A DNA stretch of 48,646 bases, from the NCBI GenBank assembly GCA_038065395.1, contig JBBTRB010000002.1, positions 1 through 48,646 on the forward strand, written 5' to 3'. The stretch is from Patescibacteria group bacterium. Its GTDB lineage: Bacteria > Patescibacteriota > Minisyncoccia > Phycocordibacterales > PALSA-1337. Every line of letters begins with the position of its first letter. Within the stretch, counting starts at the first letter, position 1. The position numbers and the translations under genes were made by a program. The notes below the pieces were generated by a model. It did not search any database. It saw nothing but the letters and a program-made list of their open reading frames with translations, and was not told the origin of the DNA. Of the stretch, positions 1 through 19,554 are shown one piece after another.

Positions 1-53
1 CGCCAACCTCTCGCGTGACAGGCGAGTGCTCTAACCAGTTGAGCTATGGCCGC
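1..53 (-). tRNA. tRNA-Asp(GUC), 5' portion only (3' part lies beyond the window start)
   Basis: The reverse complement reads GCGGCCA-TA-GCTC-AACTGGTTA-GAGC-A-CTCGC-CTGTCAC-GCGAG-AGGTTGGCG. This gives an acceptor 5' strand, a D-arm and an anticodon arm with GTC in a 7-nt loop. The T-arm is truncated by the window edge. Confidence 0.85.
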
Positions 54-127
54 ATCTCCACTAATCTACCAGAATCCACGGAAAATACAAATAGGAGGAA
101 TCTCGCCTATAATGGTAAACGAAAGTT

Positions 128-295
128 TGGGTGTCGGCGGGAGGAATCTTCCCCTACGGGGACAGTACAGTCTTCGCGTCTCGCTTCGTCCCTCGACAAG
201 CTCGGAACTCGCTGCGACATGCTCAGACTTTTCGATTCCTCCACGCAAAGCCCGCAAGGGCTTTGCTCGCCGTAAGTTGCCTACTAAAATCTGGG
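128..295 (-). ncRNA. t(m)RNA-3'-end-linked structured element, copy 1 (between tRNA-Met and tRNA-Asp)
   Basis: A 21-bp direct repeat tgggtgtcggcgggaggaatc occurs at 128-148 and 292-312; the second copy is the tRNA-Met T-arm/acceptor 3' end. The interior is homologous to 25632-25778 and 34318-34476 (shared gcgacatgctca core). It has a 9-bp hairpin at 245-266. Antisense segments of the tRNA 3' end lie at 231-242 (ttcgattcctcc) and 268-272 (cgccg). Membership of the repeat family is certain; function as an RNA is inferred. Confidence 0.6.
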
Positions 296-369
296 TGTCG
301 GCGGGAGGAATCGAACCTCCGACCTTGGGCTTATGAGTCCCACGCTCTAACCGACTGAGCTACGCCGAC
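296..369 (-). tRNA. tRNA-Met(CAU); elongator Met most likely, an Ile2 (lysidine) type cannot be excluded
   Basis: The reverse complement reads GTCGGCG-TA-GCTC-AGTCGGTTA-GAGC-G-TGGGA-CTCATAA-GCCCA-AGGTC-GGAGG-TTCGATT-CCTCC-CGCCGAC-A. This is a full cloverleaf with anticodon CAT. CCA is not encoded (the trailer is CCCA). Confidence 0.9.
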
Positions 370-2324: not shown

Positions 2325-3770
2325 CTATTCTCCCAAGAAATCCTTGCCCACTTGGAACAGTGTTTTCTCATCACCGTGTCTGCCTGATATTTGTAGGCCA
2401 AGTGGTAATTCTTTACCTTCTTTGGAAGTAGTGCCGCACGGAATTGAGATCGCGGGCATACCGGTAAGGTTCGCTGTCACGGTGAATATATCTTCGAGAT
2501 ACATTGCGACTGGATCTGCAGTTTTCTCCCCTATCTTGAAAGCCGTCGAAGGAGTTGTGGGTGTAACGATGACATCCACCTTCTCGAAGGCATCGAGAAA
2601 ATCTTTGGTGATCATCTGACGTACTGCATTGGCGCGGTTATAGTATGCATCATAATATCCAGAGGAAAGCACGTAGGTTCCCAACAGTATTCGACGTATG
2701 ACTTCCTTGCCAAAGCCTGCACGTCGCGTCTGGAAATAATCATCGATACCGTCTTTGCCGTCCACATGCAGACCGTATTTGACTCCATCGAAGCGAGCCA
2801 TGTTCGATGAAACTTCTGCAGGCATGATGACATAGTAGACCATCAATGAATACGAAATATTCGGCAGAGACACGTCTTTGATCTCGTAGCCTTTCTCCTT
2901 GAGCGCAGCCAGACTCTTTTCGAAGTTCTGTAGAACCGCAGGATCGATACCATCTCCTTTGAGAAATTCTCGAGGCACACCGATGACAGGTTTTTTGCTT
3001 CCGATCCTCACTGGCTTATACGTATCTGCACTAATAGTCGTAGCATCACGTCCGTCCGTACCCCTGATCGCATCGAAAAGGATTTCACTATCACTCACCG
3101 TCTTGGCGAAAGGTCCGATCTGATCGAGCGAAGATCCCATAGCCATGACCCCGTAGCGTGACACAGCTCCGTAGGTAGGTTTGAGACCAACCACTCCACA
3201 GAAGCTCGCTGGCTGACGGATCGAGCCACCGGTATCAGAGCCGAGCGCACATAGTGCCCCGTCCATCGCTACCGCAGCGGCAGAACCACCCGAAGAGCCC
3301 CCTGCAACACGAGTGATATCGTGCGGATTTTTCGTTACTCCATATGCAGAATTCTCGGTCGATCCTCCCATAGCAAATTCGTCCATATTCGTTCTTCCCA
3401 GGAATACAACTCCGGCTTCTTTGAGCTTCGCGATAACCGTCGCATCATACGGTGCATGATAGTTCTCGAGGATCTTCGAAGCAGAGCTTGCGATCTTGCC
3501 TTGGACCAAGATGTTGTCTTTGATGGCGATCGGGATACCCGTGAGCATGCCTGCCTTGCCCTCTCTGAACATCTGATCTGCTTTCTGGGCGGATTCGAGC
3601 ACGTCGGCATAGACCTCGAGGTAGGCGTTGATATCTTTGTTCTTGGCAGAGATAGTGTCGAGATACGCTTGTGCAAGTTCGACACAGCTAAAGTCACCTC
3701 TTTTCAGAGCTTCGTGTGCCTTGGCAATTGTTAGTTTTTTCAGATCGATGATCATGATATATGTGTCCAA
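2325..3770 (-). CDS. gatA: Asp/Glu-tRNA(Asn/Gln) amidotransferase subunit A
   Basis: Amidase signature GGSSGGSAAAVA, typical GatA length, directly downstream of gatC. An alternative start lies at 3755 (MIIDLKK). Confidence 0.93.
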   Translation of the reverse strand: MDTYIMIIDLKKLTIAKAHEALKRGDFSCVELAQAYLDTISAKNKDINAYLEVYADVLESAQKADQMFREGKAGMLTGIPIAIKDNILVQGKIASSASKILENYHAPYDATVIAKLKEAGVVFLGRTNMDEFAMGGSTENSAYGVTKNPHDITRVAGGSSGGSAAAVAMDGALCALGSDTGGSIRQPASFCGVVGLKPTYGAVSRYGVMAMGSSLDQIGPFAKTVSDSEILFDAIRGTDGRDATTISADTYKPVRIGSKKPVIGVPREFLKGDGIDPAVLQNFEKSLAALKEKGYEIKDVSLPNISYSLMVYYVIMPAEVSSNMARFDGVKYGLHVDGKDGIDDYFQTRRAGFGKEVIRRILLGTYVLSSGYYDAYYNRANAVRQMITKDFLDAFEKVDVIVTPTTPSTAFKIGEKTADPVAMYLEDIFTVTANLTGMPAISIPCGTTSKEGKELPLGLQISGRHGDEKTLFQVGKDFLGE

Positions 3771-4622: not shown

Positions 4623-4666
4623 TATGTGTCACCACCGTTTCTCTTGTCCTCTCTGTTTGTTTCTTG

Positions 4667-4853
4667 TGTCATCCCCGCGAAGGCGGGGATCCAGAATCAC
4701 TTCCAGTATATAGTCGACTTAAGTTATATAAACAATGAACATGACTGGTTCAGCAGGTAATTACAGGGATAGTTCCTAATGGTTTGTAATGGTATAGATC
4801 TAAGTAAGTAGCCATGCCCTTGCTCCTGGATCCCCGCCTTCGCGGGGATGACA
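4667..4853. repeat. MITE-like unit: perfect 28-bp inverted repeats (REP-like GC hairpins) flanking a 131-bp AT-rich spacer
   Basis: tgtcatccccgcgaaggcggggatccag at 4667-4694 has its exact reverse complement at 4826-4853. Each arm is itself a hairpin, ATCCCCGC-GAAG-GCGGGGAT. A third copy of the hairpin lies at 15988-16012. Confidence 0.8.
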
Positions 4854-4897
4854 AAAAAACGATGGTAGCAAAAGGAAGCGAGGATAGCGCAACATAT

Positions 4898-7019: not shown

Positions 7020-7574
7020 CTACTCATACGTCACGCGCATGGCACGTTCTACGGTGCGAGGACCAATAGCAGGGCATCCAGTGTCGGTGTTACCGAGGTT
7101 ATAGCCTCGAGAATTGATCTGCTGTTTTATTATGGCACCATTGATAGGTTCAACATTGATACGAACCGTTATGACTGCACACCCCCTACTTGTATTGATC
7201 GGATCACCTGAGTCATCATAAAAGAATATCTTTACGGGGTCAGATTCGAACGTATCGCCAGTTTCAATCCAACCAGGAGGAGGATCCGATACTACATCTC
7301 CTCCGGTAAAAGGAATCTGGTACTGAACATCATTACAATAGAATACATCTGTCTCAGCAATGTTGAGTACCGTTTCCGCTGCACACTCAAGCCCCGAGTC
7401 TGCATTATAGATCGCAAACATCGAGTCACGCGCAGTTGAAGCCAATATATATTGTTTGCGTGCAACCGAAGTTATGAATATCGCCACACTCAACACAACT
7501 GCCGCTGTCAGTGTTGCAAAGAGGAGAGTGTATCCGCGGTTTTGTGAAGAGAATGTCATATTATATGATCGCAT
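7020..7574 (-). CDS. type IV pilus minor pilin-like protein (PilX-like, degenerate N-terminal motif)
   Basis: The N-terminus has NRGYTLLFATLTAAVVLSVAIF, a prepilin-like G-Y-T-L motif plus a hydrophobic helix but without Glu5. It is the last gene of the minor-pilin run. A start at 7559 (MTFSS) would avoid overlap with the upstream gene. Confidence 0.65.
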   Translation of the reverse strand: MRSYNMTFSSQNRGYTLLFATLTAAVVLSVAIFITSVARKQYILASTARDSMFAIYNADSGLECAAETVLNIAETDVFYCNDVQYQIPFTGGDVVSDPPPGWIETGDTFESDPVKIFFYDDSGDPINTSRGCAVITVRINVEPINGAIIKQQINSRGYNLGNTDTGCPAIGPRTVERAMRVTYE

Positions 7575-8115
7575 TTACGAGTTCACTGACCAGTTCGATC
7601 TGATAAGGGATCCTGCCCTGTGACCACTCAACGATCACGTGGACTTTGTAGGCATCAGCGGGAGTAGTGAGTGGTTCGAGATAGAAATAACGGTAGAACC
7701 TCTTACCTTCATTTCCTTCATTATCATGAGCATACCCATTTGATGTCGACACCAGGAGACAACTACCATCAGCCAAACATGGTCGCTTCAATACAACAGT
7801 ATTTTCATCGTATTGAGGTATAAATGCGATATCACATCTATGGAGCAAGTCACCATCCCCTATACACTCTGAGATAGGGGGGCTACCGACACCAGTCCAT
7901 ATACCCACGTTGTTACTGCGTATATTTTTGATGATCTCCATTGCTTCTTGTGCGAGAAATGAGGCCGTCATCTGATCACCCGAGTACAACGCCGCATTGA
8001 GACTACGACTAGCAGCCACAAGTGGTCCTGCCACAGCGATCATCAGGATCGTAACCGCCACCAGCGTCTCGATGAGAGTGAATCCACTATTCTGTTTACG
8101 TAAAAGGTGTGTCAT
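7561..8115 (-). CDS. prepilin-type N-terminal cleavage/methylation domain protein (minor pilin)
   Basis: MTHLLRKQNSG|FTLIETLVAVTILMIAVAG, a canonical class III signal peptide. Confidence 0.85.
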   Translation of the reverse strand: MTHLLRKQNSGFTLIETLVAVTILMIAVAGPLVAASRSLNAALYSGDQMTASFLAQEAMEIIKNIRSNNVGIWTGVGSPPISECIGDGDLLHRCDIAFIPQYDENTVVLKRPCLADGSCLLVSTSNGYAHDNEGNEGKRFYRYFYLEPLTTPADAYKVHVIVEWSQGRIPYQIELVSELVNAII

Positions 8116-8118
8116 ATA

Positions 8119-8832
8119 TTAATCTTCGAATAAGCGCGGCGATATGGCTGTCTGAACGTCGAAATAACTTTTCTCACGTTCACGAACACCTGCAGATCCA
8201 GAGACCCTAATAAACGCCAGTGGATATGCCTGTTCAGACACACTGAGTGTAATATCTGTTATATCGATATCATCGGTAGCCAAAAGTGGAGAGTATGCTA
8301 TATCAAGATCTTGGTCGCAGGTACTTTGCTCTGCTTTTAGGATTGCGAATTTGTCCGTTACAGGATCCCAGAATTTGTAGGCTATGATTGCTTTGCAGGT
8401 GGCACCTGGACCATTTGGAAGGACTTTGGATGATCTGAAAGCTAAAATTTTATTATTACCGAGCGCACATGCGACTGATTGAAAATTATTTTCATCTACT
8501 ATATCGCCCACGCCATAATCTGAACAAAAATACGTCGACCCGACTCTCATCTCACGTGACATAGTCTCCAGAGCGAAGTTGAGGTTGGTGATGGCTGACT
8601 GGAGAGTCTGAGCCTTTTTGTTGGCGCTGACGATATGGACGAGTGCGCCGAGTGAGACCGTGGCAACAACAGCGAAGATGCCGAGTGAGACGATCATCTC
8701 AACGAGGGTGAAGCCAGAAGAGTTAGGAAGTTGAAAGTTAAAAGGCGAAAGTGAACGCAAACTTCTGCGACCTTCTTGAATCTTGCTTCTTGAATCTTGA
8801 ATCTTTTTTGTGAACATTTCTTTTGTCTTCAT
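8119..8832 (-). CDS. prepilin-type minor pilin; the annotated start gives an unusual 40-aa leader
   Basis: ...PNSSG|FTLVEMIVSLGIFAVVATVSLG. The only in-frame ATG starts are at 8832/8817. An in-frame TTG at about 8760 would give a 16-aa leader. The leader region consists of heptad tracts at 8725-8752 and 8776-8803. Confidence 0.8.
   Translation of the reverse strand: MKTKEMFTKKIQDSRSKIQEGRRSLRSLSPFNFQLPNSSGFTLVEMIVSLGIFAVVATVSLGALVHIVSANKKAQTLQSAITNLNFALETMSREMRVGSTYFCSDYGVGDIVDENNFQSVACALGNNKILAFRSSKVLPNGPGATCKAIIAYKFWDPVTDKFAILKAEQSTCDQDLDIAYSPLLATDDIDITDITLSVSEQAYPLAFIRVSGSAGVREREKSYFDVQTAISPRLFED
8776..8803 (-). repeat. 28-nt heptamer tract C (sense GATTCAA GATTCAA GAAGCAA GATTCAA)
   Basis: Four 7-mers with the shared 20-mer. 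A second 4x7 tract, (AGGAAGT)(TGAAAGT)(TAAAAGG)(CGAAAGT), lies at 8725-8752. Confidence 0.85.
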
Positions 8833-8840
8833 TATAGCAC

Positions 8841-9509
8841 CTACTCTTCGACCGAGATCTGACCATTCTTTCTGACAAGAACCGAGCGAGTACTGCCGTC
8901 AGTACCAGCGATGATGAGTCTTACGTATCCCGGCTCAGTTCCACCACCTGCGCAGAAACTTGCAACACAGATAATAGCGTCAGGATCGGGACGTTTGAAG
9001 GTTATATGAGCCTCACCTTCCCCACACCCTGCTGTATCTGTACAAATATCTTTGATGATTGCCCCTCGCTTGAGCGCATATGTGTTGACGAGTTGGTCTG
9101 CCCCTGAGGCATAGAACCCTTCTGAACCAAGGTCACTATCTGAAAAGAAAATCACCTGGCTGTTAATCGATGTATCGTTTGAAACAAATATCCCGTACGC
9201 ATTGGTAAACGCACCTCCTTCTTGCTTCACACTCACTCCATACGTCTGCGCGGTACGGATCGTCAGTGCCATATCATAGGCAAGGTTGGTCAGGAGCACA
9301 CTTTGGTTGAAGGTGCCGTACTTGGCCACAACAAGCGCAGTCATGATGGCAAAGATAGAGATCGAGACAATGAGTTCGACGAGGGTGAAGCCTCGGGAAA
9401 AAGTATGAGGTATGAAGTATGAGGTATGGGAAGATTTGCAATTCCCTTGAATCTTGGATCCTGAATCTTGAATCTCTGAGTTATTGATTTGCATTTCTTT
9501 TGTCTTCAT
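8841..9509 (-). CDS. prepilin-type minor pilin (GspH/FimT-like); 40-aa leader
   Basis: ...HTFSRG|FTLVELIVSISIFAIMTALVVAKYG. No alternative ATG/GTG/TTG lies between the MKTKEM start and the cleavage motif. Confidence 0.8.
   Translation of the reverse strand: MKTKEMQINNSEIQDSGSKIQGNCKSSHTSYFIPHTFSRGFTLVELIVSISIFAIMTALVVAKYGTFNQSVLLTNLAYDMALTIRTAQTYGVSVKQEGGAFTNAYGIFVSNDTSINSQVIFFSDSDLGSEGFYASGADQLVNTYALKRGAIIKDICTDTAGCGEGEAHITFKRPDPDAIICVASFCAGGGTEPGYVRLIIAGTDGSTRSVLVRKNGQISVEE
9447..9474 (-). repeat. 28-nt heptamer tract D (sense GATTCAA GATTCAG GATCCAA GATTCAA)
   Basis: Four 7-mers. The adjacent 9401-9428 is a perfect 2x14 (equal to 4x7) tandem, aagtatgaggtatg aagtatgaggtatg. Confidence 0.85.
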
Positions 9510-9513
9510 TATA

Positions 9514-10338
9514 CTACATCGCGGAGAATAGATATCCGATCAGGGATATGTCGATGACTTCAACTCCGAACAAGAGCACCAGATACATGCCGAGGATGAG
9601 ATAAGGCCCAAAAGGTATTTCTGTTCGAGGCTTGAGCTTGCCATACGATATCAGAAGCCATGTCACACTCAGTCCTGCTGCGATCCAGAACGCCAAGACC
9701 ACCGCATTGATACCTCCACTGATACCAAGGAGCCAGCCGATACCGAGACACAGTTTCGCATCACCGAGTCCCATCCACTGCCCTTTGGATACCAACCAGA
9801 TCAGTGCGAATGGCAATGCCAAGAGTGGTCCCGCCAGGAGTGCACTCCACGAAGGTACGTGCCACCATGATGCACCTCCGATGAACAGACTAACGAAGCT
9901 GATCGCCGCAAAGGTGTATGACAACATATCAGGGATGATCTTGTGTCGTGTATCGTATATGGTGATGACGAGTAATATGCAGGTCACCAGAAGATAGAGA
10001 AATGTTCTAAATCCCGCAACCCAGGAAATAGGTGGAAAATACCAGATAATACCCAGAGCGATGAGTCCTGAAAGTATTTCGATGATTGGATACTGCCAGG
10101 AGATCTTGCTCGCACATTTCTTGCATTGCCCTTTTTGTATGAGGAAGCTCACTACAGGCACGAGCTCCTTCCAGGTCAGTTGCTCATTGCATGACATGCA
10201 GGCAGATCTACCATTGACCCCCTTGCCCGTATTGAACCGCAGTGCCACAACATTGAGGAAACTTCCGATGATCGTGCCGAAGACAAAAGAAAAGATCAGC
10301 GAGAAAAGATTCATGAGTATTATTGTGGACCGACGCAA
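9514..10338 (-). CDS. pilD: prepilin peptidase (A24 family)
   Basis: IGSFLNVV, a Zn-type CxxC...CxxC motif (CMSCNEQL...CKKC), multiple TM helices and the catalytic-Asp contexts IIPD and GLGDAKL. A start at 10314 (MNLFS) would remove the overlap with the pilin gene. Confidence 0.92.
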   Translation of the reverse strand: MRRSTIILMNLFSLIFSFVFGTIIGSFLNVVALRFNTGKGVNGRSACMSCNEQLTWKELVPVVSFLIQKGQCKKCASKISWQYPIIEILSGLIALGIIWYFPPISWVAGFRTFLYLLVTCILLVITIYDTRHKIIPDMLSYTFAAISFVSLFIGGASWWHVPSWSALLAGPLLALPFALIWLVSKGQWMGLGDAKLCLGIGWLLGISGGINAVVLAFWIAAGLSVTWLLISYGKLKPRTEIPFGPYLILGMYLVLLFGVEVIDISLIGYLFSAM

Positions 10339-10835
10339 TAGTGAACTTCTGCTGTTCCCTGGCCATTGTTGGCAGTGCCACAGTTCTGACTGAATACCGT
10401 ACCATCCAAATCATCCTTAACGACTTCACTGTAACCTTCCAAGACGGTCATCAATACATAGTCTGTAGCAGGAGCTGTATTGGTACCATATCTATACACA
10501 ACTTGTCCGGCCTGAGTTCCCGGAGTCGGTATGTTGGTAATAAACGTATTGATAGTTATTACTGCACCACTCTGTGTAGTACAGGACGAAGCTACGTCGA
10601 TCGTTGGTTGGCCACTAACGACAGCTGATGCTGGATACTTGTTACACCTATCGAAATACAGCTCAAGCGCGAGCTGTAGCTGTCCGATATCTGACACGCG
10701 CTTGGCATCACGGGCTTTGCCGCGAGACTTGGTGAGGTTGACGGTGATGATACCTGTAAGCAATGCCATGATCGCGATCGCGATCATGAGCTCTATGAGC
10801 GTGAAGCCTTTTTTATATGGAAGATGTGTTTTCAT
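10320..10835 (-). CDS. type IV pilin (second major-type pilin)
   Basis: From the ATG at 10835: MKTHLPYKKG|FTLIELMIAIAIMALLTGIITVNL. There is a C-terminal Cys pair. The longer track ORF (to 10886) overlaps the upstream methyltransferase. Confidence 0.85.
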   Translation of the reverse strand: MKTHLPYKKGFTLIELMIAIAIMALLTGIITVNLTKSRGKARDAKRVSDIGQLQLALELYFDRCNKYPASAVVSGQPTIDVASSCTTQSGAVITINTFITNIPTPGTQAGQVVYRYGTNTAPATDYVLMTVLEGYSEVVKDDLDGTVFSQNCGTANNGQGTAEVHYCVGPQ

Positions 10836-10875
10836 GGAATGATTATACCACAGAGAAGCATTCTCCCAACAAGAG

Positions 10876-11601
10876 CTACTTGTCACTGACGGCTTTTGCG
10901 ACCACTATCAGACTTTGTCCGAAAGGTGGATGTGCTATGCGTGACTCTACAAAATAAACAATGGGAAATATGACCTTGTCATAAAAGATAACTGCTTTTG
11001 CATTAAATGATCTCTGTTTCAAGAAGCAGAAAGAGAACCACCATGCAAAATACCCAACCATATTGTAATAACGTATCGATTCGACTATGAATCCAGCATG
11101 TGCAAGCTTTTCTGTAAGATTCTTCTTGGTATATCTGCGGTAGTGACCAAAATCTTTATCTAACGGGGCATATATCTCAGGGCGCGCAGGAACAAAGAGG
11201 CATAGCGATCCTCTTTTTTCTTTGAGAAGGTCGAAATATACTCTGAGTTCTTCCTGATCTTTTTCAATGTGTTCCAGCACATTTATAGTCACTATTGCAT
11301 CCCAATCTTTTTTATATATATCACGCGCAATACCTTCAAAAATAGGTTGATCGGGAAACTTTTCTCGCAATTTCGATGAAAATCTCTGATCGGGCTCAGT
11401 GCATTGCAGAAAAGATATATCTTTCAATTCTCTGAATAGTGCAGTCATCTGACCAATACCTGAGCCGATTTCGATCACGGAACCTTTGAGGTATTTTGAG
11501 AATTCTCGAATAAGCGACAACCTGTAGTTATATGCATGTTCAAGTGCTTTGAATTCGAAATCTTCATTTGATGCCTCGGAGTTATATGTGGAATCAGACA
11601 T
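10876..11601 (-). CDS. class I SAM-dependent methyltransferase
   Basis: Motif I VIEIGSGIGQMT, with later motifs DAIVTINVLEHI. Visibly AT-richer than the pil genes. Confidence 0.8.
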   Translation of the reverse strand: MSDSTYNSEASNEDFEFKALEHAYNYRLSLIREFSKYLKGSVIEIGSGIGQMTALFRELKDISFLQCTEPDQRFSSKLREKFPDQPIFEGIARDIYKKDWDAIVTINVLEHIEKDQEELRVYFDLLKEKRGSLCLFVPARPEIYAPLDKDFGHYRRYTKKNLTEKLAHAGFIVESIRYYNMVGYFAWWFSFCFLKQRSFNAKAVIFYDKVIFPIVYFVESRIAHPPFGQSLIVVAKAVSDK

Positions 11602-11606
11602 AGATA

Positions 11607-14057
11607 CTATGGATTATTTTTTGATTTTACCTGATAGAGGATGTACTGGTACTCGGAATCGTAAATCTTTTTCTCAAAGTTTGCATTGTGTTCGAGGATA
11701 TAGTTGAACAATTGCAGGTTCGCCTGACTGACTACATATTCAGCACCCAACTGATTCCGAATAATACTAGCCATTTTATCACCCTCCGTCTTTGCATACG
11801 AATCAAAGTTAACGAACTTTTCCGCCATATGCTTCTCAATGATTAAGTCATTTTCTGGACATTTTTCCTGATCACATACATATCCTTTGTACGGAATATT
11901 CACTGAAAGCCAATACAGATGGGGACTGTAGTCATACGTAAATCGAGGTTCAAGACCAGATATGTAGTTATTGCGGGGACTATGGTAGTAGAGCTGTGGG
12001 AACCAGCTCCAGTTTACATCGAGGACAACGGATCCTGGCTCTGTATTCTTCTTTAACCACGACCCGATCTTATAAAATTCTACTTCCTGAGCACCATACG
12101 CGATCTTTTGTTGCAGGAAGAGCATATTGCTTGTAAACAAATATACGAGAACTATCGAAAGTGCTGTTGCAAGACTGTATTTTATCATTGGTGTACCCGA
12201 TATCATCAGATTCCTTCGTGCATAATCGAAAGATAGTGCGATATAGAGAGCGGCAAACATGGTGAAGTAGTCACCAAAACGAGCACTTGCCACTACCGTT
12301 CCAAGAAAGAACAATGCTGTTAATATCAGTACGCATGTCTGCAGATGCCTTCGAGCTTCTTTTACTCCAGAAAGATAATCTTTGACTGTACTATGCCCCA
12401 CCCTATACGACAAATAACTAAATACATCTATAACTAATGCGGTTACGAAGGCGGCAAATATGATCGTGTTAGCTTGTATAAAGTTAAAAAAGTCTGCCGG
12501 ATATAATTCGCCACCCTCTGCAATCGCAACCTTCTTTCCAATAATAGTATCGACATATGTTCCAAAAATAATATCCTTCATGTAGTACATGAATCCTGAA
12601 GAGACAAGGAATGTCGCACCTATCGCAAGTGTCGTCCCTCCAATTACGGCGAATAGATTTTTATAATCCCCTTTGAGTCCGTAGAACTTTTCTATGAGCA
12701 AATACCCCAATGCAACACATGCTGGCAAGAAAAAGCTGGCACTATGCCAATACATGTAAGCAAAAGCAACGATGAAGGCACCTATATAATTTTTCCTATA
12801 CAAGAACACCAACAAAAGAATTAGCAGGGATGGGGCTAATGCATAAGGTCTTGAGAGGAAAAACCTCCAAATGGAACCGACTCCACTCACTGCAATGAAA
12901 ATAAGAGTCCATACGAAGGGGTTTTGAATCTCAAATTTTTTGAAACACCAATAGAGAAGTGCGAATGCAGATGCAACTATACAAACAGCATAGAGCTTGA
13001 TACCCGCATACAATGGAGCAATGAAGGTGAACGGGATAATGAATAGATAGAATAGGAAATTGTAGTATACGAAATAAGTGTTCCCTTGGGCCATTTTCGA
13101 GAGATATATTGATTTGAAGTCACTAAATGAACTAAAAAATCCATCGTCCAACATCTGTTGAGCAAATCTGAAATGAAAAAAATGATCATCACTACTAGAT
13201 ACGGTATTTACTGAGAAGTACATACTGCAGAAGATAGTGAAAAACAATGAGAAGATCAGGAAAAGTGTCAACTTTGGTCTTGGTAAAATCCAATTCTGGA
13301 ATACACTCACTGTATTTTTTAACATACTCCATGTAGCAACAGATCGTTCAAAAAACCACAAAAAGAAAATATGTCTGAGGCATCGTACTCCATGTCTCCA
13401 GTTCATCTTTTTCCCTTCCTCTTTCTTCCTTGAATGATATGAGATAGGAATTTCAAGAATAGTACCGTAGGTCTTAAGCAAAAAGTATGTGAGGTCAATA
13501 ACGTCGAATATAAACCCACTTGAAGTCAGCGTCAGAAGCTTGGGGATTGCTTCCTTTGGAAAGACTTTGTAACATGTTGCGATATCAGTGATACGGCTCC
13601 TGAAAACGAGGTTGAATATCTTGGTCACCAAAAGTCCTCCATAAAAATAGATCTGGCTAAAAGGCACTGCGTTTTCACTCAAAACTCTTGATCCAAACAC
13701 CACCTTCGTCTTCCCTTCGATAATCGGTTTTAATAGTGCACCGTAGTCTTCTGGATCATACTCTAGGTCAGCATCTTGAATAAGAACAAAATCTCCTGTT
13801 GCCACAGATAGCCCGTCTCTCAAAGCAGCTGCTTTGCCTCCATTCTCAGCACGAAACACAGCCTTAACCTTATCCGTGTAGCGAGCGATGACACCTCTAC
13901 TACCGTCCGTAGACCCATCATCAACGACGATAACTTCCCTTGACCAACCCTGAGGTAATACCACCGTAAGAACCTTTTTGAGCGTCGCTTCGACGGTCTT
14001 TCTTTCATTGAAAACCGGAATGATGACGGAAAGTCTTTGCGGAATATTTTGTGACAT
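11607..14057 (-). CDS. fusion protein: N-terminal GT2 (polyprenyl-phosphate sugar synthase-like) plus a large polytopic membrane domain (GT-C/ArnT-like by architecture) plus a C-terminal soluble domain
   Basis: The N-terminus has LSVIIPVFNERKTV, VVDDGSTDGS and IQDADLEYDP, which are GT2 DxD-type motifs. Residues ~230-640 form more than 10 hydrophobic helices. Assignment of the membrane part is by architecture only. Confidence 0.75.
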   Translation of the reverse strand: MSQNIPQRLSVIIPVFNERKTVEATLKKVLTVVLPQGWSREVIVVDDGSTDGSRGVIARYTDKVKAVFRAENGGKAAALRDGLSVATGDFVLIQDADLEYDPEDYGALLKPIIEGKTKVVFGSRVLSENAVPFSQIYFYGGLLVTKIFNLVFRSRITDIATCYKVFPKEAIPKLLTLTSSGFIFDVIDLTYFLLKTYGTILEIPISYHSRKKEEGKKMNWRHGVRCLRHIFFLWFFERSVATWSMLKNTVSVFQNWILPRPKLTLFLIFSLFFTIFCSMYFSVNTVSSSDDHFFHFRFAQQMLDDGFFSSFSDFKSIYLSKMAQGNTYFVYYNFLFYLFIIPFTFIAPLYAGIKLYAVCIVASAFALLYWCFKKFEIQNPFVWTLIFIAVSGVGSIWRFFLSRPYALAPSLLILLLVFLYRKNYIGAFIVAFAYMYWHSASFFLPACVALGYLLIEKFYGLKGDYKNLFAVIGGTTLAIGATFLVSSGFMYYMKDIIFGTYVDTIIGKKVAIAEGGELYPADFFNFIQANTIIFAAFVTALVIDVFSYLSYRVGHSTVKDYLSGVKEARRHLQTCVLILTALFFLGTVVASARFGDYFTMFAALYIALSFDYARRNLMISGTPMIKYSLATALSIVLVYLFTSNMLFLQQKIAYGAQEVEFYKIGSWLKKNTEPGSVVLDVNWSWFPQLYYHSPRNNYISGLEPRFTYDYSPHLYWLSVNIPYKGYVCDQEKCPENDLIIEKHMAEKFVNFDSYAKTEGDKMASIIRNQLGAEYVVSQANLQLFNYILEHNANFEKKIYDSEYQYILYQVKSKNNP

Positions 14058-14082
14058 AGCCTGAAATATAGCATGCGCCTAT

Positions 14083-14112
14083 ACAAAACAAAACCCCGAT
14101 ATCGGGGTTTTG
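14083..14112 (-). terminator. rho-independent terminator downstream of the pilin gene
   Basis: Minus sense reads AACCCCGAT/ATCGGGGTT followed by TTTGTTTTG; the structure is symmetrical (A-run on the other side). Confidence 0.75.
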
Positions 14113-14137
14113 TTAGCCTTAAGAGAATATCGAGATT

Positions 14138-14614
14138 TTACTGACAGCGAGCAGCTGTAGCATTGGTACCAGTATCGACTTGGTTCGTTGCACCTGTTGA
14201 GTCAAGACAGAAATACTTGGTAGTGTCTGAAACTAGACGGCCACGAATAACGTAGTTTGAGTTGAGAGAGTTGAGTGTTCCGATATATAGGATTCCTCCT
14301 TGTGCATTTATATCAGCGTTGATAGTCGTCATGTCTGCAGTTGGAGAAACTATACAGTTTATGTACGTTGCAGCTGTATTACTGTTACCCGCTCCACTAC
14401 AACTAGTATTTGAACCATTTACAGGATACCCTGCTCCGTTGAATGCTGTTTCAAGCAATGTTCTCATCTGCTGAACGCCAGCGATAACACGAGCATCCTT
14501 AGCCTTGTTTCTCGCTGAGTTCAAACTCACCAACACTACTGACGAAAGAATACCGATGATCGCGATGACCACGAGCAATTCGATGAGTGTAAAACCTTTT
14601 TTGTACTGTTTCAT
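14138..14614 (-). CDS. pilA: type IV major pilin
   Basis: MKQYKKG|FTLIELLVVIAIIGILSSVVLVSLNSARNKAKD. It has its own terminator and a 136-nt upstream gap. Confidence 0.9.
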   Translation of the reverse strand: MKQYKKGFTLIELLVVIAIIGILSSVVLVSLNSARNKAKDARVIAGVQQMRTLLETAFNGAGYPVNGSNTSCSGAGNSNTAATYINCIVSPTADMTTINADINAQGGILYIGTLNSLNSNYVIRGRLVSDTTKYFCLDSTGATNQVDTGTNATAARCQ

Positions 14615-14690
14615 ATATAAAATTATACGAATAAACTGTTAATCTGATTAATATAACTAACCTTTCTCTGAATGTAAGGTTGTTGAGACT

Positions 14691-14699
14691 ATTATATCA
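14691..14699 (-). promoter_or_regulatory. candidate extended -10 element (TGATATAAT) upstream of pilA
   Basis: The minus-sense sequence GGGTGATATAATAGTC lies in the pilC-pilA gap. No convincing -35 element. Confidence 0.3.
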
Positions 14700-14750
14700 C
14701 CCTCTATCCACTACGATATCCTTATATTCTGTGGATAACGAGTGGGCAAC

Positions 14751-15962
14751 CTACTGCGTACTGGCGATGTTGTATATCGGGATCAAGACCGATGCCAACA
14801 ACACCGCAACACCTCCTCCGAGCAGCACGATCATCAGAGGTTCGATCAGTGACACCAGAGAGTCGACAGCGGTCGTGACTTCGCGAGTATAGAATCGCGA
14901 CATGGTCTTGAGGATCGAGCCGACCTCTCCGGTTTCTTCACCCACTTTCATCATTTGCACCATGATACCGGGGATCTCACGTGGATTGTTGGATAGAGAT
15001 TCTGACAGCGTCTTGCCTCCGGTGACTTCTTCGACAGCTCTAGAGATAATATTCTGATAAACCTGGTTGTTGATGACGGTCGAGGTCAACTCCAATGCGC
15101 GCACCATCGGAATACCTGAGATCAACATCGTGTTCATGTTATCCGCCAGACGCGAGAGGTAGAGTTTCTTGAAAAGAGTCGATATATAGGGGATGCCGAG
15201 CTTGAACTGGTCATAGATCATCCTGCCCGCTGGAGTACGGACGAACCTAACGAGGAAGAATCCTCCGATCAGAGCCACTGCCAAGAGAATGAAACCGTAT
15301 TCTAGGAGGAAATTACTGATACCGAGCACAACTTGTGTATATACTGGGATCTCTCCTCCGGATTCTGTCAGGATGCCACTGATCTTGGGGATGACCATGG
15401 TGAACATCAAGATCATCACGGTGATGAAGGTCACCACGATGAATGCCGGGTAGATGAGCGCACCTTTGACCTTGGAAGAGAGTTCGTAGGAACGATCGAG
15501 ATAGTCTGCAAGATAGAGGAATGTTTCGTCGAGTTTGCCCGACTCCTCGCCCGCCTTGACCATGTTGACGTAGAAGTTGCTAAAGACCTTTGGATGTTTG
15601 GCCAATGCATCTGATATTGGACTTCCTGCCTGGAGATCATCGGCGATCGTCTGCATCTTGGAGCCAAGGACATGGTTCTCTGTTTCTGAAGCCAACAGGC
15701 GGAATATGCGCAACGCCGAGATCTGAGCCTCGAACAAAGTCGAGAGTTGCCTCGACAAGATCACCACGTCTTTGGTCGAGATTCTGTCGAAAAGCGCGAT
15801 ATTCTTGCCGAAGAATGAACCGTTGGCATCTGCTTCTTTGATCGAGGTCAGAGTCAGACCTCGTCTCTGCAGAGACAGGATCGCAACATCAGAATTCACG
15901 GCGTCGATAGAGCCTGTTTTCTTGGCGCCGGTATTGTCGATAGATTCGTAGTTGAAGAGCAT
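14751..15962 (-). CDS. pilC: type IV pilus platform protein (T2SS F family)
   Basis: 403 aa with a duplicated GspF-type domain and three TM segments, located between pilT and pilA. Confidence 0.9.
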   Translation of the reverse strand: MLFNYESIDNTGAKKTGSIDAVNSDVAILSLQRRGLTLTSIKEADANGSFFGKNIALFDRISTKDVVILSRQLSTLFEAQISALRIFRLLASETENHVLGSKMQTIADDLQAGSPISDALAKHPKVFSNFYVNMVKAGEESGKLDETFLYLADYLDRSYELSSKVKGALIYPAFIVVTFITVMILMFTMVIPKISGILTESGGEIPVYTQVVLGISNFLLEYGFILLAVALIGGFFLVRFVRTPAGRMIYDQFKLGIPYISTLFKKLYLSRLADNMNTMLISGIPMVRALELTSTVINNQVYQNIISRAVEEVTGGKTLSESLSNNPREIPGIMVQMMKVGEETGEVGSILKTMSRFYTREVTTAVDSLVSLIEPLMIVLLGGGVAVLLASVLIPIYNIASTQ

Positions 15963-15987
15963 ATGTGTAGTATATCAGATTCGTTTA

Positions 15988-16012
15988 TGTCATCCCCGCG
16001 AAGGCGGGGATC
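15988..16012. repeat. REP-like GC hairpin (third copy of the 4667/4826 arm)
   Basis: tgtcatccccgcgaaggcggggatc, in the pilT-pilC gap. Confidence 0.8.
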
Positions 16013-16018
16013 TGCGAT

Positions 16019-17077
16019 CTAAATCATGCGTTCCAACGTCTTCGGGTTAAGCGAGTTCGCATGAGCACTCTCGACCGTGATCTCACCAGAACGTACGAGC
16101 TCTGCCAATGAACGGTTCATGTCGATCATGCCGTCCTGTGAACTCGTCTCGATGACCGTGTTGATCTCATAGGTGCGTCGCTCACGGATCAGGTTCGAGA
16201 CTGCACTGTTGTTGATCAGGAGCTCATAGGCCGGGATCAATCCTCCGGACATGCGTGGGATCAGACGTTGCGAGAATATACCTGTCAGGGAACTCGCGAG
16301 TTGTACACGGATCTGATCTTGTTGCCCTGGCGGGAATGAGTCGATGATACGATCGATCGTCTGAGCGGCGTTGTTGGTGTGAAGTGTCGAAAATACCAGG
16401 TGTCCCGTCTCTGCAGCTGTCACGGCAGTCGAGATCGTCGTGGCGTCGCGCATCTCACCGACCATACACACATCGATATCCTGACGGAACATAGCCGTCA
16501 ATGCACTGGCGAAATCTGGCGTATCAATACGCACCTCTCGTTGGTCGATGATAGACTTTTTGGATTCGAAGAGGTATTCGATCGGATCTTCGATGGTCAT
16601 AATATGTTCGGTGCGGGTCTGGTTGATCATCTCGATCAGGGTTGCCAACGTCGTTGTCTTGCCTTGTCCGATCGGTCCTACCACCAAGAAGAATCCTTGG
16701 GCCTTGCGAGTGAACATGTCGAGAATGACGGGTAGGTTGAGCTCTGGCAGCGTACGGATAGCCTTGGGGATGAGACGAAGTGCGATGGCGATAGAGTCTT
16801 GTCTGCGGAATACATTGCCACGGAAACGTGCATTCTTGAGACTATAAGAAAAGTCGACGTCTTTGTTCTTTTCGAGAAGCTCCACATTGGCCGGTGAAAG
16901 AAATACTTTTATGAAACCCTGCATATCAGTCGGGGTGAGGACGGCCTGTTTGACCAGAGGGATGAGAGCCCCTGAAACACGGATGATCGGTGCACGGCCA
17001 GCTGACAGGTGAAGGTCCGAGGCACCCTCTTTGAGCAATAGATCTACCAAGCTTTCTATTTCTTTTTCGTAGTTCAT
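16019..17077 (-). CDS. pilT: type IV pilus retraction ATPase
   Basis: 352 aa with Walker A GPIGQGKTT, MVGEMRD and STLHTNNAAQTIDRI, a PilT-type layout with no long N-terminal domain. Confidence 0.9.
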   Translation of the reverse strand: MNYEKEIESLVDLLLKEGASDLHLSAGRAPIIRVSGALIPLVKQAVLTPTDMQGFIKVFLSPANVELLEKNKDVDFSYSLKNARFRGNVFRRQDSIAIALRLIPKAIRTLPELNLPVILDMFTRKAQGFFLVVGPIGQGKTTTLATLIEMINQTRTEHIMTIEDPIEYLFESKKSIIDQREVRIDTPDFASALTAMFRQDIDVCMVGEMRDATTISTAVTAAETGHLVFSTLHTNNAAQTIDRIIDSFPPGQQDQIRVQLASSLTGIFSQRLIPRMSGGLIPAYELLINNSAVSNLIRERRTYEINTVIETSSQDGMIDMNRSLAELVRSGEITVESAHANSLNPKTLERMI

Positions 17078-17514
17078 TATGATGTTTGTTTATGAGCACA
17101 TATCTTCTCGACTTCTTTTAAAACTTCCGAAGGGATCGTCGTTGCCTTGACGATGTAACCGTTGACTTCGAGCTTCTTGGCACGGGCAATGTCCTCTGAA
17201 GATCCTTGGTTGGTCAACATGATGATCGTTGCATTCGGCGCCAACCTTTCTTTACGAACACGCTCGATGAACTGCAACCCGTCCATATCCGGCATCACAA
17301 TATCTGCCAACAATATGTCTGGCATGTATCCAGATGACAAGAGTCGCAATGCCGCCTCGGTCGAGTCTGCGGTTTTGACATCGTAGCCAGCCTTGTTGAA
17401 CTTGAGCGTATACATGTCGAGGAGAAACTTGTCATCGTCGACGAACATAACCTTGGTACGTACAGATGACGTATCGGGAACTATTTGTTGAGGAGGTGTA
17501 GGAGTGTCATTCAT
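17077..17514 (-). CDS. single-domain response regulator (receiver only)
   Basis: KVMFVDDDKF...LADIVMPDMDG...NGYIVKA. It is CheY-like, has no output domain, and its stop overlaps the pilT start (TAATG). Confidence 0.85.
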   Translation of the reverse strand: MNDTPTPPQQIVPDTSSVRTKVMFVDDDKFLLDMYTLKFNKAGYDVKTADSTEAALRLLSSGYMPDILLADIVMPDMDGLQFIERVRKERLAPNATIIMLTNQGSSEDIARAKKLEVNGYIVKATTIPSEVLKEVEKICAHKQTS

Positions 17515-17526
17515 GGTATTAGTATA

Positions 17527-19254
17527 CTACAACTTGTTTACTTCCTCGAAAGGAATCTTCTTCTCGAAGGCTTTGATGATGGCATCTTCTTTGATCGTGA
17601 TCATTCCCTTCGCTCTTAGGATCTTGGTAATAGCAGTCTCAGTCGGAGATGTGAGGATCGCCTGCTCGATCTCTTTATCCATTTCGAACATTTCGAACAC
17701 TGCAGTGCGTCCACGAACTCCTTTTGGTGATTCTGGTGTCGGCTTGATCTTGTGCACGGTATCCGAAAAAGGAATCTCCTTGCGATATTGTTCGGGAAGA
17801 TCGGCAAACTGACTATCGATCATCGCTTTGATACTTCCCTCTACTTTGACTGGTTCTCCACCTCCTGGGATAAGCATACCAGCGAGACGCTGGCCGATCG
17901 CCAAGATCAGAGTCGGTGCGATGAGGTACGGGTCAACTCCCATGTCGATAAGACGAGGGATCACACCAGCAGAACTGTTGGTGTGGAGTGTCGAGAAAAC
18001 CAAGTGACCAGTCAATGCCGCCTGAACCGCAAGCTGTGCCGTCTCTTTGTCGCGGATCTCTCCCACCATGATGATGTCTGGGTCCTGACGCAATGTTGTA
18101 CGCAAACCTGCCGCAAAGGTGTAGCCGATCTCGGGTCGAACTTGTGACTGACTCATGCCCTCGATCGAGTACTCCACTGGATCTTCGAGCGACAATACGT
18201 TGTAACTTTCACGGTCGATCTCGGTCAACAATGAATACAGCGTGGTGGACTTACCCGAGCCAGTCGGACCAGTCACTAGGATCATGCCGTAGGGTTTGTT
18301 GATCGCTTTGCGAACAAGCTCGAGGTTGCGTGGAGAAAAGCCGATCTGATCGAGCGTACGAACGCCTTTGGCCTGGTCAAGGATACGCATCACCACCTTT
18401 TCTCCATGATATGCAGGGAATGTAGATACACGGAAGTCGATACGACGACCGTCGATGCGTGCCGAGAAACGGCCGTCTTGCGGTTTGCGCTTTTCATCGA
18501 GACGCATGTTGGAGAGCACTTTGATACGTGCAACAACCGCAGAGTGAACCTGTGCTGGCAAGACCAGACTGGTATTGAGTACTCCGTCGACACGGAAACG
18601 CACACGGACTTTGTCACGCATATGTTCTATGTGTACGTCGGACGAATCCCCTTCTACTGCATATCGGACGATTGTGGCTACGATCTTGACGACGGGCGCA
18701 TCCTCGATGATGACGGTATTTTCGCTGGACTTGTCTTGTGATTGTGCTTGAGATGCTTCTTCTGGTTTGACAGAGTCTGTCTCTACCGAGAGTTCAGTCT
18801 CAAGTTCCGAAAGAGCCTTGGAGACCTCACCGGTCATGCCCTTGTACATATCGATGACTTTCTTGAAGTCATCGAGTGTTATCAAAAATATTTTGTAAGG
18901 AATGTTCTTTTGAGATGCAAGGAAGTTGAGCGCATCACGTGCCTCCATATTGTCCGGATCAGTCACTCCAACCTCGAGCATGCCTTCTTTGAGACCGATC
19001 GGTACGAAGCCGTACGTCAACGCGGATTCTTCGGGGATATATTCGAGCGCCTGGAAAGGGATCGAAACTTCACTGAGAGATCTGACCGGGATATTGAGGA
19101 ACTCACCTCGAGCAGCCATGATGTCTTCTGGTTTGACACCCTTGGAGATCAGAGCCTGTTCGAGCGAAGTACCTGCGGCTGTCTGTTTGCGTACATCACG
19201 AATAGCCTCTTTTGAGATTAACTCCTTTTGTAAGAGAATATCGAGAACTGACAT
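17527..19254 (-). CDS. pilB: type IV pilus assembly ATPase (GspE family)
   Basis: 575 aa with an N-terminal GSPII_E-type domain, Walker A GPTGSGKSTT, MVGEIRD and STLHTNS. Confidence 0.92.
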   Translation of the reverse strand: MSVLDILLQKELISKEAIRDVRKQTAAGTSLEQALISKGVKPEDIMAARGEFLNIPVRSLSEVSIPFQALEYIPEESALTYGFVPIGLKEGMLEVGVTDPDNMEARDALNFLASQKNIPYKIFLITLDDFKKVIDMYKGMTGEVSKALSELETELSVETDSVKPEEASQAQSQDKSSENTVIIEDAPVVKIVATIVRYAVEGDSSDVHIEHMRDKVRVRFRVDGVLNTSLVLPAQVHSAVVARIKVLSNMRLDEKRKPQDGRFSARIDGRRIDFRVSTFPAYHGEKVVMRILDQAKGVRTLDQIGFSPRNLELVRKAINKPYGMILVTGPTGSGKSTTLYSLLTEIDRESYNVLSLEDPVEYSIEGMSQSQVRPEIGYTFAAGLRTTLRQDPDIIMVGEIRDKETAQLAVQAALTGHLVFSTLHTNSSAGVIPRLIDMGVDPYLIAPTLILAIGQRLAGMLIPGGGEPVKVEGSIKAMIDSQFADLPEQYRKEIPFSDTVHKIKPTPESPKGVRGRTAVFEMFEMDKEIEQAILTSPTETAITKILRAKGMITIKEDAIIKAFEKKIPFEEVNKL

Positions 19255-19260
19255 AGGTTA

Positions 19261-19551
19261 TTAGCGAACTGGTGCGAATGGATTTGGGCGACCAACTCCC
19301 TGATCAGGGATAGGTACTGAGCGATCACGGAGTGTTTGGTACACTGGTGAAGAGAAGAAGTTGGCATCAATAGTGATGGTATTGACCTGGTTGAGCAACG
19401 TGAGGATGAGTGCAGCTCGACCATCGGCCGCAGCAGCAGGACCTGCCTGGAGCAACGCCGATCCGGAAGAAGAGGAACCTCCTTTGACGAAGAAGTACCC
19501 GAATCCGACAAGGACTGCAACAATGATGATAATGATGGTGGATTTATTCAT
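19261..19551 (-). CDS. small membrane-anchored protein in the pilus operon (PilP-position analogue)
   Basis: 96 aa with an N-terminal TM (IIIIIVAVLVGFGYFF). Assignment is by position between pilO and pilB only. Confidence 0.5.
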   Translation of the reverse strand: MNKSTIIIIIVAVLVGFGYFFVKGGSSSSGSALLQAGPAAAADGRAALILTLLNQVNTITIDANFFSSPVYQTLRDRSVPIPDQGVGRPNPFAPVR

Positions 19552-19554
19552 AGG

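Follow-up and report, generated by a model that had tools for sequence, protein, structure and literature searches.

What occupies the spacer between two neighbouring transfer RNA (tRNA) genes is the question raised by the left end of contig JBBTRB010000002.1 of a Patescibacteria group bacterium (assembly GCA_038065395.1). The stretch analysed here, called the window, comprises positions 1 to 48,646 of this contig, and between its tRNA-Met and tRNA-Asp genes it carries an insert that ends in a second copy of the tRNA-Met 3' end. An earlier note had described a separate element in this spacer, a view borne out by the match to a covariance model and by two more copies in the window. On balance we favour the reading that 128-291 is one copy of a small protein-less mobile insertion at the 3' ends of tRNA and transfer-messenger RNA (tmRNA) genes, non-autonomous and acting as a folded single strand with an enzyme provided in trans. 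That the insertion is mobile, or was so formerly, appears likely; the detail that the single strand is DNA is put forward tentatively. The reading draws on what could be observed directly, namely membership of a family with a covarying fold, strict association with tRNA and tmRNA genes, sense and antisense segments matched to the target, empty sites, arrays, relics and a cargo variant.

The insert behind tRNA-Met and its family

Only two exact matches to the 21-mer TGGGTGTCGGCGGGAGGAATC are present in the window (128-148 and 292-312), with no further match at up to three mismatches and none expected in shuffles, and the direct repeat reported in the earlier note is therefore an exact and unique pair. 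Its proximal copy (292-312) is the tRNA-Met(CAT) gene's 3' end, from G57 of the T-loop through the 3' strands of the T-stem and acceptor stem to ACCCA. This gene was placed on the minus strand at 292-370 by ARAGORN and at 296-369 by Rfam (71.6 bits). The next gene downstream of the element is tRNA-Asp(GTC), of which the window edge leaves only the 5' part (1-53, minus strand; Rfam tRNA, 35 bits) and which is complete at 3337-3411 in the extended locus L041. ARAGORN, Rfam and L041 thus agree with the proposed order of tRNA-Met, element and tRNA-Asp on one strand.

Read along the minus strand, the tRNA-Met gene is followed by a spacer (273-291). A pattern scan found no terminator-like site between tRNA-Met and the core of copy 1, as the earlier note had it. 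The spacer leads into A'acc (268-272), an antisense patch of the acceptor 3' strand of which copy 1 keeps CGGCG only (6/9 match), and then into hairpin P2 (245-266; GCAAAGCCC UUGC GGGCUUUGC), which stands exactly between both antisense patches, at tRNA position 65/66. The other patch, A'T (231-242; GGAGGAAUCGAA), is a 12-nucleotide (nt) antisense of the T-loop and the T-stem 3' strand. The conserved core (164-230), delimited by invariant columns and by the covariation of P4, consists of junction J3/4 (GAAAAG), P4, the internal loop UGAGCAUG / GCGAA, P5 with a variable tip hairpin, and junction J4/6 (CUGUAC). It is followed by hairpin P6 (149-163; GUCCCC GUA GGGGAA), recognised by its covariation in the family, and by the distal copy of the tRNA-Met 3' end (128-148, G57 to ACCCA), which in the predicted fold pairs with the antisense patches as helices P3 and P1.

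The internal antisense had been said to match the genuine T-arm better than the distal repeat, and the sequence agrees: the inverted match between 231-242 and 304-315 (TTCGATTCCTCC / GGAGGAATCGAA) spans 12 nt, of which 9 nt extend to the distal repeat. The shorter string GGAGGAATC is found at 94, 140 and 304 on the plus strand and at 234-242 on the minus strand; it has six matches in the window against 0.55 expected, and 94-312 contains four of the six. Its third copy, at 94-102, had been suspected of being an older decayed repeat. It is indeed present within a probable relic of an older tandem copy (94-107, minus strand; GGCGAG/ATTCCTCC), in which CTCGCC at 102-107 repeats 266-271. From its sequence the relic is plausibly what remains of an older copy after most of it was deleted, its left end (A'acc and the first part of P2) now joined to its T-part.

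A covariance model built from relatives matches copy 1 at 138-268 of the minus strand with 114.6 bits. When the 249-nt read-through RNA of this copy is folded at minimum energy, no free pre-tRNA is left, as the antisense patches sequester the genuine T-arm and acceptor 3' strand and the 5' half of the tRNA pairs with the distal repeat. Release by RNase P and RNase Z, which the earlier note had expected, would therefore depend on fast co-transcriptional folding. A scan for a sigma-70 promoter of the element's own gave nothing convincing, and the adjacent protein (643-1455), tried as a synteny anchor, proved to be an orphan. Three loci that are unrelated to one another have a distal repeat with the odd ending ACCCA, in place of ACCA, behind the acceptor strand: tRNA-Met of the window (128-132), tRNA-Leu of L026 and tRNA-Val of L029.

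The ~145-nt unit of copy 1 recurs downstream of tRNA-Ser(GCT) and of the tmRNA gene according to a repeat finder, and covariance model R1 detects three members in the window and no more. Each of them is a minus-strand sequence that lies 3' of its host gene (tRNA-Met, tRNA-Ser or tmRNA) and points in the direction of that gene. Copy 2 (25618-25777) lies behind tRNA-Ser(GCT) at 25778-25867, with a model match at 25618-25733 (122.4 bits). All 9 nt of its A'acc (25733-25741) are complementary to the tRNA-Ser end, and its distal repeat has 13 nt only (25619-25631). Copy 3 (34295-34476; model match 34304-34433, 115.7 bits) follows the tmRNA gene, which extends from 34475/34477 to 34842, and comprises a bidirectional terminator (34442-34476), A'acc (34433-34441), P2 (34410-34431), A'T (34396-34407) and then the core. 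An exact 21-nt repeat of the tmRNA 3' end occurs at 34297-34317 and 34477-34497, the distal one running on into CCA (34295-34296). The three copies fold alike (z = -3.6, -2.9 and -7.1 for copies 1 to 3), and the element stands behind three of the nine tRNA-type genes seen in the source genome.

For the family as a whole, the core pattern TGAGCATGTCGC...GACGCGAA..CTG was scanned over 185,579 species genomes, a metagenome collection and IMG/VR. The species genomes gave 23 loci, 22 of them genuine and all 22 from Patescibacteria (Saccharibacteria, Paceibacterota/Parcubacteria, Nomurabacteria and Taylorbacteria), and the metagenome collection gave 17 further loci. One match in an Alphaproteobacteria genome (L011) and one metagenome match (L038) were discarded as chance matches in coding DNA. 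No match to the strict pattern was found in IMG/VR, and its ten matches to a loose pattern were rejected by the covariance model as chance. With model R1 the family comes to about 40 copies, including the diverged L016:3615-3746 and the beta cores, and all of them are on contigs of the candidate phyla radiation (CPR, or Patescibacteria). The beta core subfamily was seen at L049:3389-3506 and L015:1-87 (UGAACAUAUUUUC...GAAAAUGUGAA and UGAGUAUGUUUCU...AGAAAUACGAA). Since the exact-pattern scans missed it, the family exceeds the copies recovered.

Nearly all copies with upstream sequence follow a tRNA or tmRNA gene on the same strand at a distance of 0-110 nt, the exceptions being due to later insertions between gene and element (L064, L001, L036). 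The host genes are those for Met, Ser (three), Ile, Leu (two), Lys, Ala, Arg (two), Glu, Tyr, Trp, Gly, Gln, Val, Cys and Asn, that is 19 tRNA species, together with tmRNA. The element measures about 120-190 nt and contains no open reading frame (ORF). In about two thirds of the members the spacer holds a T-run hairpin resembling an intrinsic terminator, or a long hairpin that includes the acceptor 3' strand of the tRNA; other spacers carry a GAGCGNAGCGAG loop similar to the tip of P5. Gene callers put spurious ORFs over the element (for example L041:3404-3694), and population assemblies (L043-L046 and L069) break within or beside the element or the tRNA repeats.

At gathering thresholds only tRNA and tmRNA genes of the window pass in Rfam 15, and a sensitive Rfam scan of copy 3 (E<=10) returned noise and the repeated tmRNA 3' end only. 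BLAST against phage and plasmid collections gave no match, and no description of such a family was found in the literature searched; it is apparently undescribed.

A covarying fold with antisense patches that follow the host tRNA

The order of parts on the tRNA strand is common to the family. The tRNA 3' end, or identity block A (tRNA positions 54/57-73 and 1-3 nt more), is followed by the spacer, A'acc (antisense of 66-74), a single A nucleotide, P2, GU and A'T (antisense of 54-65), and then by GAAAAG, P4, the internal loop, P5 with its variable tip, CUGUAC, P6 with a GUA loop and the second block A. A structure of 35 pairs was evaluated on 31 sequences, where it was 94.2% paired against 27-45% in controls with slid partners. 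Changes on both sides were found in 22 of the 35 pairs, with a covariation score of 0.518 against about 0.09 in the control, and RNAalifold predicts the same helices independently. All five pairs of P6 covary across the family (99.4% paired) and so do seven of the nine pairs of P2 (96% paired). In P4 the covariation involves GC18:UA13 and UA20:CG11, which are never broken. Pairs that are invariant elsewhere change compensatorily in the beta subfamily, from G-C to A-U, from C-G to U-A and throughout P5.

The antisense patches follow the neighbouring tRNA. A'T matches the T-arm of the adjacent tRNA at 10.1 of 11 positions, compared with 7.9 for foreign tRNAs as a control. A'acc matches at 7.0 of 9 positions (control 4.8) and is perfect in 13 of 31 cases. 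As it also complements N73 and N74, and has an A opposite U70 of tmRNA, A'acc is a complement of the 3' strand and not a copy of the 5' strand of the tRNA. The break in the antisense falls precisely at 65/66, where the T-stem meets the acceptor stem. In the fold a single uninterrupted 3' strand would carry P1 stacked with P3, in the manner of a tRNA, and P2 would leave the stack where a tRNA has its D and anticodon arms.

The spacer, the acceptor 3' strand of the tRNA and A'acc often form one long hairpin of -20 to -60 kcal/mol, and in L003, L007, L009, L017 and L023 its perfect arms of 25-30 nt start precisely at position 66. In this hairpin, which joins the tRNA end to A'acc, the sense strand shows 25 G-U and one A-C pair, compared with seven G-U and nine A-C among the 782 pairs of P2 and P4-P6. 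The length of the repeat itself ranges from 8 to 35 nt across the loci.

Signs of insertion and the readings that compete

Comparison with relatives favours insertion, as unoccupied sites were found at the tmRNA gene of L053 and at the tRNA-Cys gene of L026. In L053 the tmRNA passes straight into its flank (...CTCCAC AATAA TTGACT), and the TTGAC flank is likewise found beyond the distal repeat of the window copy (CTCCACCA TTGACT) and of those in L047 and L001. Because this flank is common to L053 and the occupied loci, about 180 nt have been added, including a new 3' end or spacer. The tRNA-Cys site is occupied in L032, and a relic of the element, the left ~50 nt only, is present in the syntenic L005. 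In L036, three copies of the tRNA-Glu 3' end separate a small insert, a 1.7-kb unit and the flank; the order of this array is tRNA-Glu, the small insert, the second repeat (A2), 1.6 kb with two ORFs and a family core at the right end, and the third repeat (A3). The relic at 94-107 behind copy 1 is a further array case and looks like a deleted older unit.

Cores that are 93-94% identical stand behind different tRNAs in different taxa (Lys in L007 and Arg in L009; Arg in L019 and Glu in L030), so relatedness tracks neither the genome nor the tRNA. One spacer type is common to copies at tmRNA and tRNA-Ala, both with similar ...TCCACC ends, and these sequences suggest movement between targets with similar 3' ends.

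The cargo variant (L036:7229-8948) carries, between a tRNA-Glu 3'-end copy and the core, an ORF resembling S-adenosylmethionine (SAM) methyltransferases (7281-7964) and one of 173 aa (8145-8666). A second and unrelated kind of insert of about 150 nt was seen directly after tRNA-Glu, and perhaps tmRNA, at L036:7059-7228 and L050:2892-3050. It ends in its own tRNA 3'-end copy and has motifs of the GAGCGAGAC/GAGTGAGAGGCGAAGC type inside; the tRNA ends of the CPR may host several micro-insert families.

Larger insertions use the tmRNA end as well. An island of ~4.1 kb (L064:10929-15085), which encodes a MerR-family protein and a large serine recombinase besides small ORFs, has inserted precisely at the 3' end of the tmRNA gene. 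Its two junctions each have a copy of TCCAC, and the island is absent from the otherwise matching L065, which has the same SmpB protein. A similar recombinase gene abuts the tmRNA in L052. A link between the element and these islands was considered and dropped, as the islands insert beside the element and are unrelated to it. At the same TCCAC point of L001 (4100-4392, minus strand), a non-coding insertion of ~295 nt stands between the tmRNA and the small element, with ends ACCCTGTG... / ...CAGGGTG and a duplicated TCCAC. It looks like a miniature element at the site used by the serine-recombinase islands.

Clustering of neighbouring genes, aimed at an enzyme encoded in cis, gave no recurrent family but only spurious ORFs over the element and synteny. 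A Pfam survey of the window found housekeeping and type IV pilus genes only, and no recombinase, reverse transcriptase, transposase, TnpA/TnpB or integron integrase.

In the mechanism that we favour, the tRNA gene stays intact and its 3' end is found once more beyond the insert (here at 128-148), adjoining the old flanking DNA; the spacer varies from nothing to a hairpin or terminator or, once, 1.6 kb of genes. The element would then be the recombination or recognition module only. In a single strand its antisense patches would pair with its own copy of the tRNA end, and the paired identity block would mimic the coaxial acceptor/T-stem minihelix of the host tRNA, decorated by P2, P4-P5 and P6. 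We infer that an enzyme supplied in trans recognises this folded strand, as DNA by analogy with the attC sites of integrons and the attP of CTX phage or possibly as RNA, and that site-specific recombination would take place across the identity block of 9-21 nt. The antisense patches would track the tRNA sequence because the fold must be kept, and a change of target would demand compensatory changes in A'.

A bolder version, to which we give a rather low probability, is a new class of programmable, structure-guided mobile element, in which a host enzyme recognising tRNA or its gene, or a reverse transcriptase, would insert the ~150-nt strand behind a matching tRNA gene. For retargeting, the sense and antisense patches would be rewritten from a template, and passage from one CPR phylum to another could occur, for instance with competence pili taking up the element as single-stranded DNA.

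Several observations weigh against the favoured reading. On which copy of the repeat came in the signs point both ways, as the empty site indicates that the distal copy keeps the old flank and the shared spacers indicate that the proximal end and the spacer travel with the element. Complementarity in A'acc is missing from about one third of the copies, and in about half of all copies the distal repeat has no acceptor part, two losses that look independent; helix P1 can therefore not be essential. The members come in two layouts, with either a repeat of 19-35 nt or a perfect palindrome of 25-30 nt and a repeat of 8-14 nt, so that one simple crossover model does not cover both. The reading does not account for the rewriting of a 5-nt internal patch (A'T) for each tRNA, and neither an enzyme nor an excised or circular form was found. 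The pair statistics point both ways, on DNA versus RNA as well as on the strand, and the sense and antisense strands fold equally well, with similar energies. The four population contigs retrieved show copy 2 as fixed; at strain level, copies 1 and 2 were fixed wherever the contigs were long enough. The element at the ssrA site is common to relatives with ~73% identity of smpB DNA, its helices intact and with compensatory changes, and this conservation could equally be long-term purifying selection on a useful RNA.

Population fixation and the compensatory conservation at ssrA make a functional structured RNA a serious rival, which we nevertheless hold to be the less probable account and rather unlikely in itself. 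It would be a non-coding RNA read through from the tRNA promoter and excised by tRNA-processing enzymes, with its spread to many tRNAs being secondary. Its role would lie in cis or trans in tRNA biology, such as 3'-end processing or stability, a decoy for tRNA-binding factors, or termination, and its shape would be that of an acceptor-like P1, an arm P2 and a T-like P3 with a greatly expanded loop, ending in N73-CCA in complete copies. The orientation is always that of the tRNA, but a T-run terminator-like hairpin stands between tRNA and element in about two thirds of the loci and, by prediction, read-through would leave the tRNA misfolded. The sense strand is tRNA-like in topology with some copies ending in ACCA, whereas loss of P1 and of the distal acceptor part is frequent. 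On the pairs, the tolerance of G-U and not of A-C in the sense strand of the hairpin between tRNA end and A'acc (25 against 1) speaks for RNA and the near absence of G-U from P2 and P4-P6 speaks against it. The strong covariation of the fold, unpaired nucleotides that are invariant over phylum-level distances, the intact structure at the orthologous ssrA site of diverged genomes and the large excess of intact copies over relics all speak for a functional RNA. Against this, only three of nine tRNA-type genes of the source genome carry the element and the host tRNAs differ between genomes, a function would not need a stem that copies the neighbouring tRNA, and arrays, relics, empty sites and the cargo variant are hallmarks of insertion.

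Diversity-generating retroelements are common in the CPR, and a retroelement like a short interspersed element (SINE), using the tRNA 3' end as primer or template, is a further alternative that we judge improbable. A' would then serve for primer binding, as a site in two parts complementary to the last ~21 nt of the tRNA, the distal repeat a copied tRNA 3' fragment (like the tRNA-derived fragments termed tRF-3, sometimes with CCA), and the palindromes the result of snap-back synthesis at the terminator hairpin, with the reverse transcriptase acting in trans. The antisense covers exactly the span of a retroviral primer-binding site, from the T-loop to N73/N74; P2 splits it at 65/66, however, and simple tRNA copying cannot yield that. 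Distal repeats end in ACCA or ACCCA in seven of the 16 loci with long repeats, while the element-free tRNA genes here mostly end in N73-CA-AA and encode CCA in one of 13; yet some proximal genes also encode CCA and the asymmetry is statistically weak. We had considered the encoded CCA as proof of a distal copy from mature tRNA and retained it as suggestive only. These CCA ends together with the primer-binding-site-like span keep the retroelement model alive, which counts against the mobile module as we picture it. The variable length of the repeat (8 to 35 nt), the perfect 25-30-nt palindromes beginning precisely at tRNA position 66 and the tRNA-like 3' end also suit a retroelement, but no reverse transcriptase was found in the window or near any copy, the empty tmRNA site fits displacement of the original end equally well, and the 1.6-kb cargo variant is atypical for a SINE. 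Least probable is an inert scar, in which fused attL/attR remnants of larger tRNA-integrated islands would have been left by internal deletion, with no activity of their own. An island-like footprint is present (the tRNA 3'-end repeat; PMC4383910), relics exist, and large-serine-recombinase islands use the same tmRNA end in relatives. Some 40 copies that agree in length and architecture across different phyla would, however, not result from random deletion, which also offers no origin for the 22 covarying pairs or the invariant loop nucleotides, so that the covariation strongly disfavours a scar; the serine-recombinase island of L064 was moreover inserted next to the small element and is unrelated to it.

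Known systems, other window features and significance

Genomic islands in tRNA genes classically leave a repeat that starts in the T-loop and runs to where the gene ends (Islander paper, PMC4383910). Like such islands and their integrase-less, cis-mobilisable derivatives, the element sits at a tRNA or tmRNA 3' end, leaves the gene intact and has the T-loop-to-end repeat at its far boundary beside the original flank. It also forms tandem arrays at one tRNA and has one member with cargo genes. A regenerated gene with a displaced 3' fragment is present in the 21-nt repeats of copies 1 and 3 and in the comparison with the empty site of L053. Unlike the islands, the element measures 120-190 nt and not kilobases, has no integrase and no ORF, and serves about 20 tRNA targets with one conserved module that has a covarying multi-hairpin fold and an internal antisense of its own identity block. 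No tyrosine or serine integrase of its own was found by the att site, either in the element, among its neighbours or in the window.

The folded attachment sites of integrons (attC) and of CTX phage and integrative mobile elements exploiting Xer (attP(+)) are likewise short non-coding modules whose arms covary and whose hairpin is kept while the sequence varies. In both systems the fold would present the identity block as a duplex that mimics the chromosomal target, cassette-like arrays share the same short repeat and cargo is optional. The element differs from these sites in that it targets a tRNA gene end, has a complex branched core (P2, P4-P5, P6) and takes a single-stranded DNA form by inference only. 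Its fold covaries and in that fold its identity block pairs with the internal antisense, but the statistics point to neither DNA nor one strand. The R''/R' motifs of attC (RYYYAAC...GTTRRRY) and dif-like XerC/D arms were sought among the invariant columns and none was found, nor is there an IntI or Xer context in the window.

MITEs (miniature inverted-repeat transposable elements), repetitive extragenic palindromic (REP) sequences and REPINs, and the palindromic elements of the IS200/IS605 family resemble the element in being small, non-coding, multi-copy and hairpin-forming, with the enzyme in trans, and IS200/IS605 also reads its target by base pairing beside a subterminal hairpin. The element is set apart by inverted segments that are target-specific, by its exclusive association with tRNA and tmRNA and by the absence of TnpA, TnpB or RAYT nearby. 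In place of the constant terminal inverted repeats and fixed-length target duplication of MITEs, it has inverted segments that differ per target and repeats of 8-35 nt. Palindrome-associated IS200/IS605 derivatives (PATEs) and TnpB/IscB guide RNAs do not match either, as a direct repeat is present, Rfam gave no IS605 or omega-RNA match (E<=10) and the window has no TnpA/TnpB.

The primer-binding sites of long terminal repeat (LTR) retroelements share with the element an antisense that spans the tRNA 3' end back to the T-loop, and its sense copy is tRF-3-like, sometimes with CCA. The antisense of the element is, however, split by a hairpin, the host is bacterial, and LTRs, gag/pol and reverse transcriptase are lacking. 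The continuous site of ~18 nt, the reverse transcriptase and the LTR or A-tail of a tRNA-primed retroelement or SINE were not found, with the window surveyed for the enzyme. With tRNA-like structures (the tmRNA domain, those of viruses, and YrlA) the element shares acceptor-like and T-like helices on one 3' strand that ends in N73-CCA in complete copies. It departs from them in having a structured insert of ~90 nt in place of the T-loop, no D or anticodon arm, and helices that perfectly complement the 3' strand of the neighbouring tRNA. ARAGORN and Rfam call no element beyond the repeated 3' end, and CCA occurs in some copies only.

Other candidates were discarded since their defining motifs were not seen by eye: self-cleaving ribozymes (hammerhead, hepatitis delta virus or other), a box C/D-like guide with CUGA beside the antisense, a K-turn, an external guide sequence for RNase P, a T-loop intron with an alternative 3' exon, and a single-strand replication origin.

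The remainder of the window offers further features. A repeated hairpin, TTGTGTCATCCCCGCGAAGGCGGGGATC, lies at 4661-4699, 4821-4859 and 15984-16012, and two of its copies are inverted with respect to each other over 39 nt, at a distance of 121 nt; GTCATTCCCGAGAAGTCGGGAATC, which resembles it, is found upstream of tRNA-Ser in L014, and the hairpin may be a REP-like element. The type IV pilus cluster (7020-21978) encodes PilM, a PilO-like protein, two secretion ATPases, a PilC-like protein, a prepilin peptidase and several N-methyl pilins, whose shared N-termini account for the direct-repeat families D2 and D3. A recG-like gene contains a 32-nt direct repeat (27217-27248 and 27280-27311) and a perfect 22-nt inverted repeat (27269-27290 and 27379-27400). 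A tRNA-Ile gene with anticodon TAT, an uncommon bacterial way of reading AUA, lies at 29299-29373 and is also present in L065.

Integrative elements that target tRNA genes are already known, and what appears to be new here, judged from the resources searched, is the reduction to a structured non-coding module with built-in target mimicry. As one module serves about 20 tRNAs, recognition would rest on structure and short homology and not on a dedicated integrase/att pair. The element accounts for assembly breaks and spurious ORF calls beside the tRNA genes of the CPR, and its covariance model could seed an Rfam-style family. The inserts may also affect the maturation of the tRNAs that precede them, since the modelled read-through fold suggests interference. 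If the favoured reading is true, the strategy of integrating into a tRNA gene and restoring it would have been shrunk to a non-coding module of ~150 nt, possibly a natural retargetable insertion module, and the CPR, whose mobile DNA and non-coding RNA are poorly known, would harbour a widespread, conserved and uncatalogued structured element.

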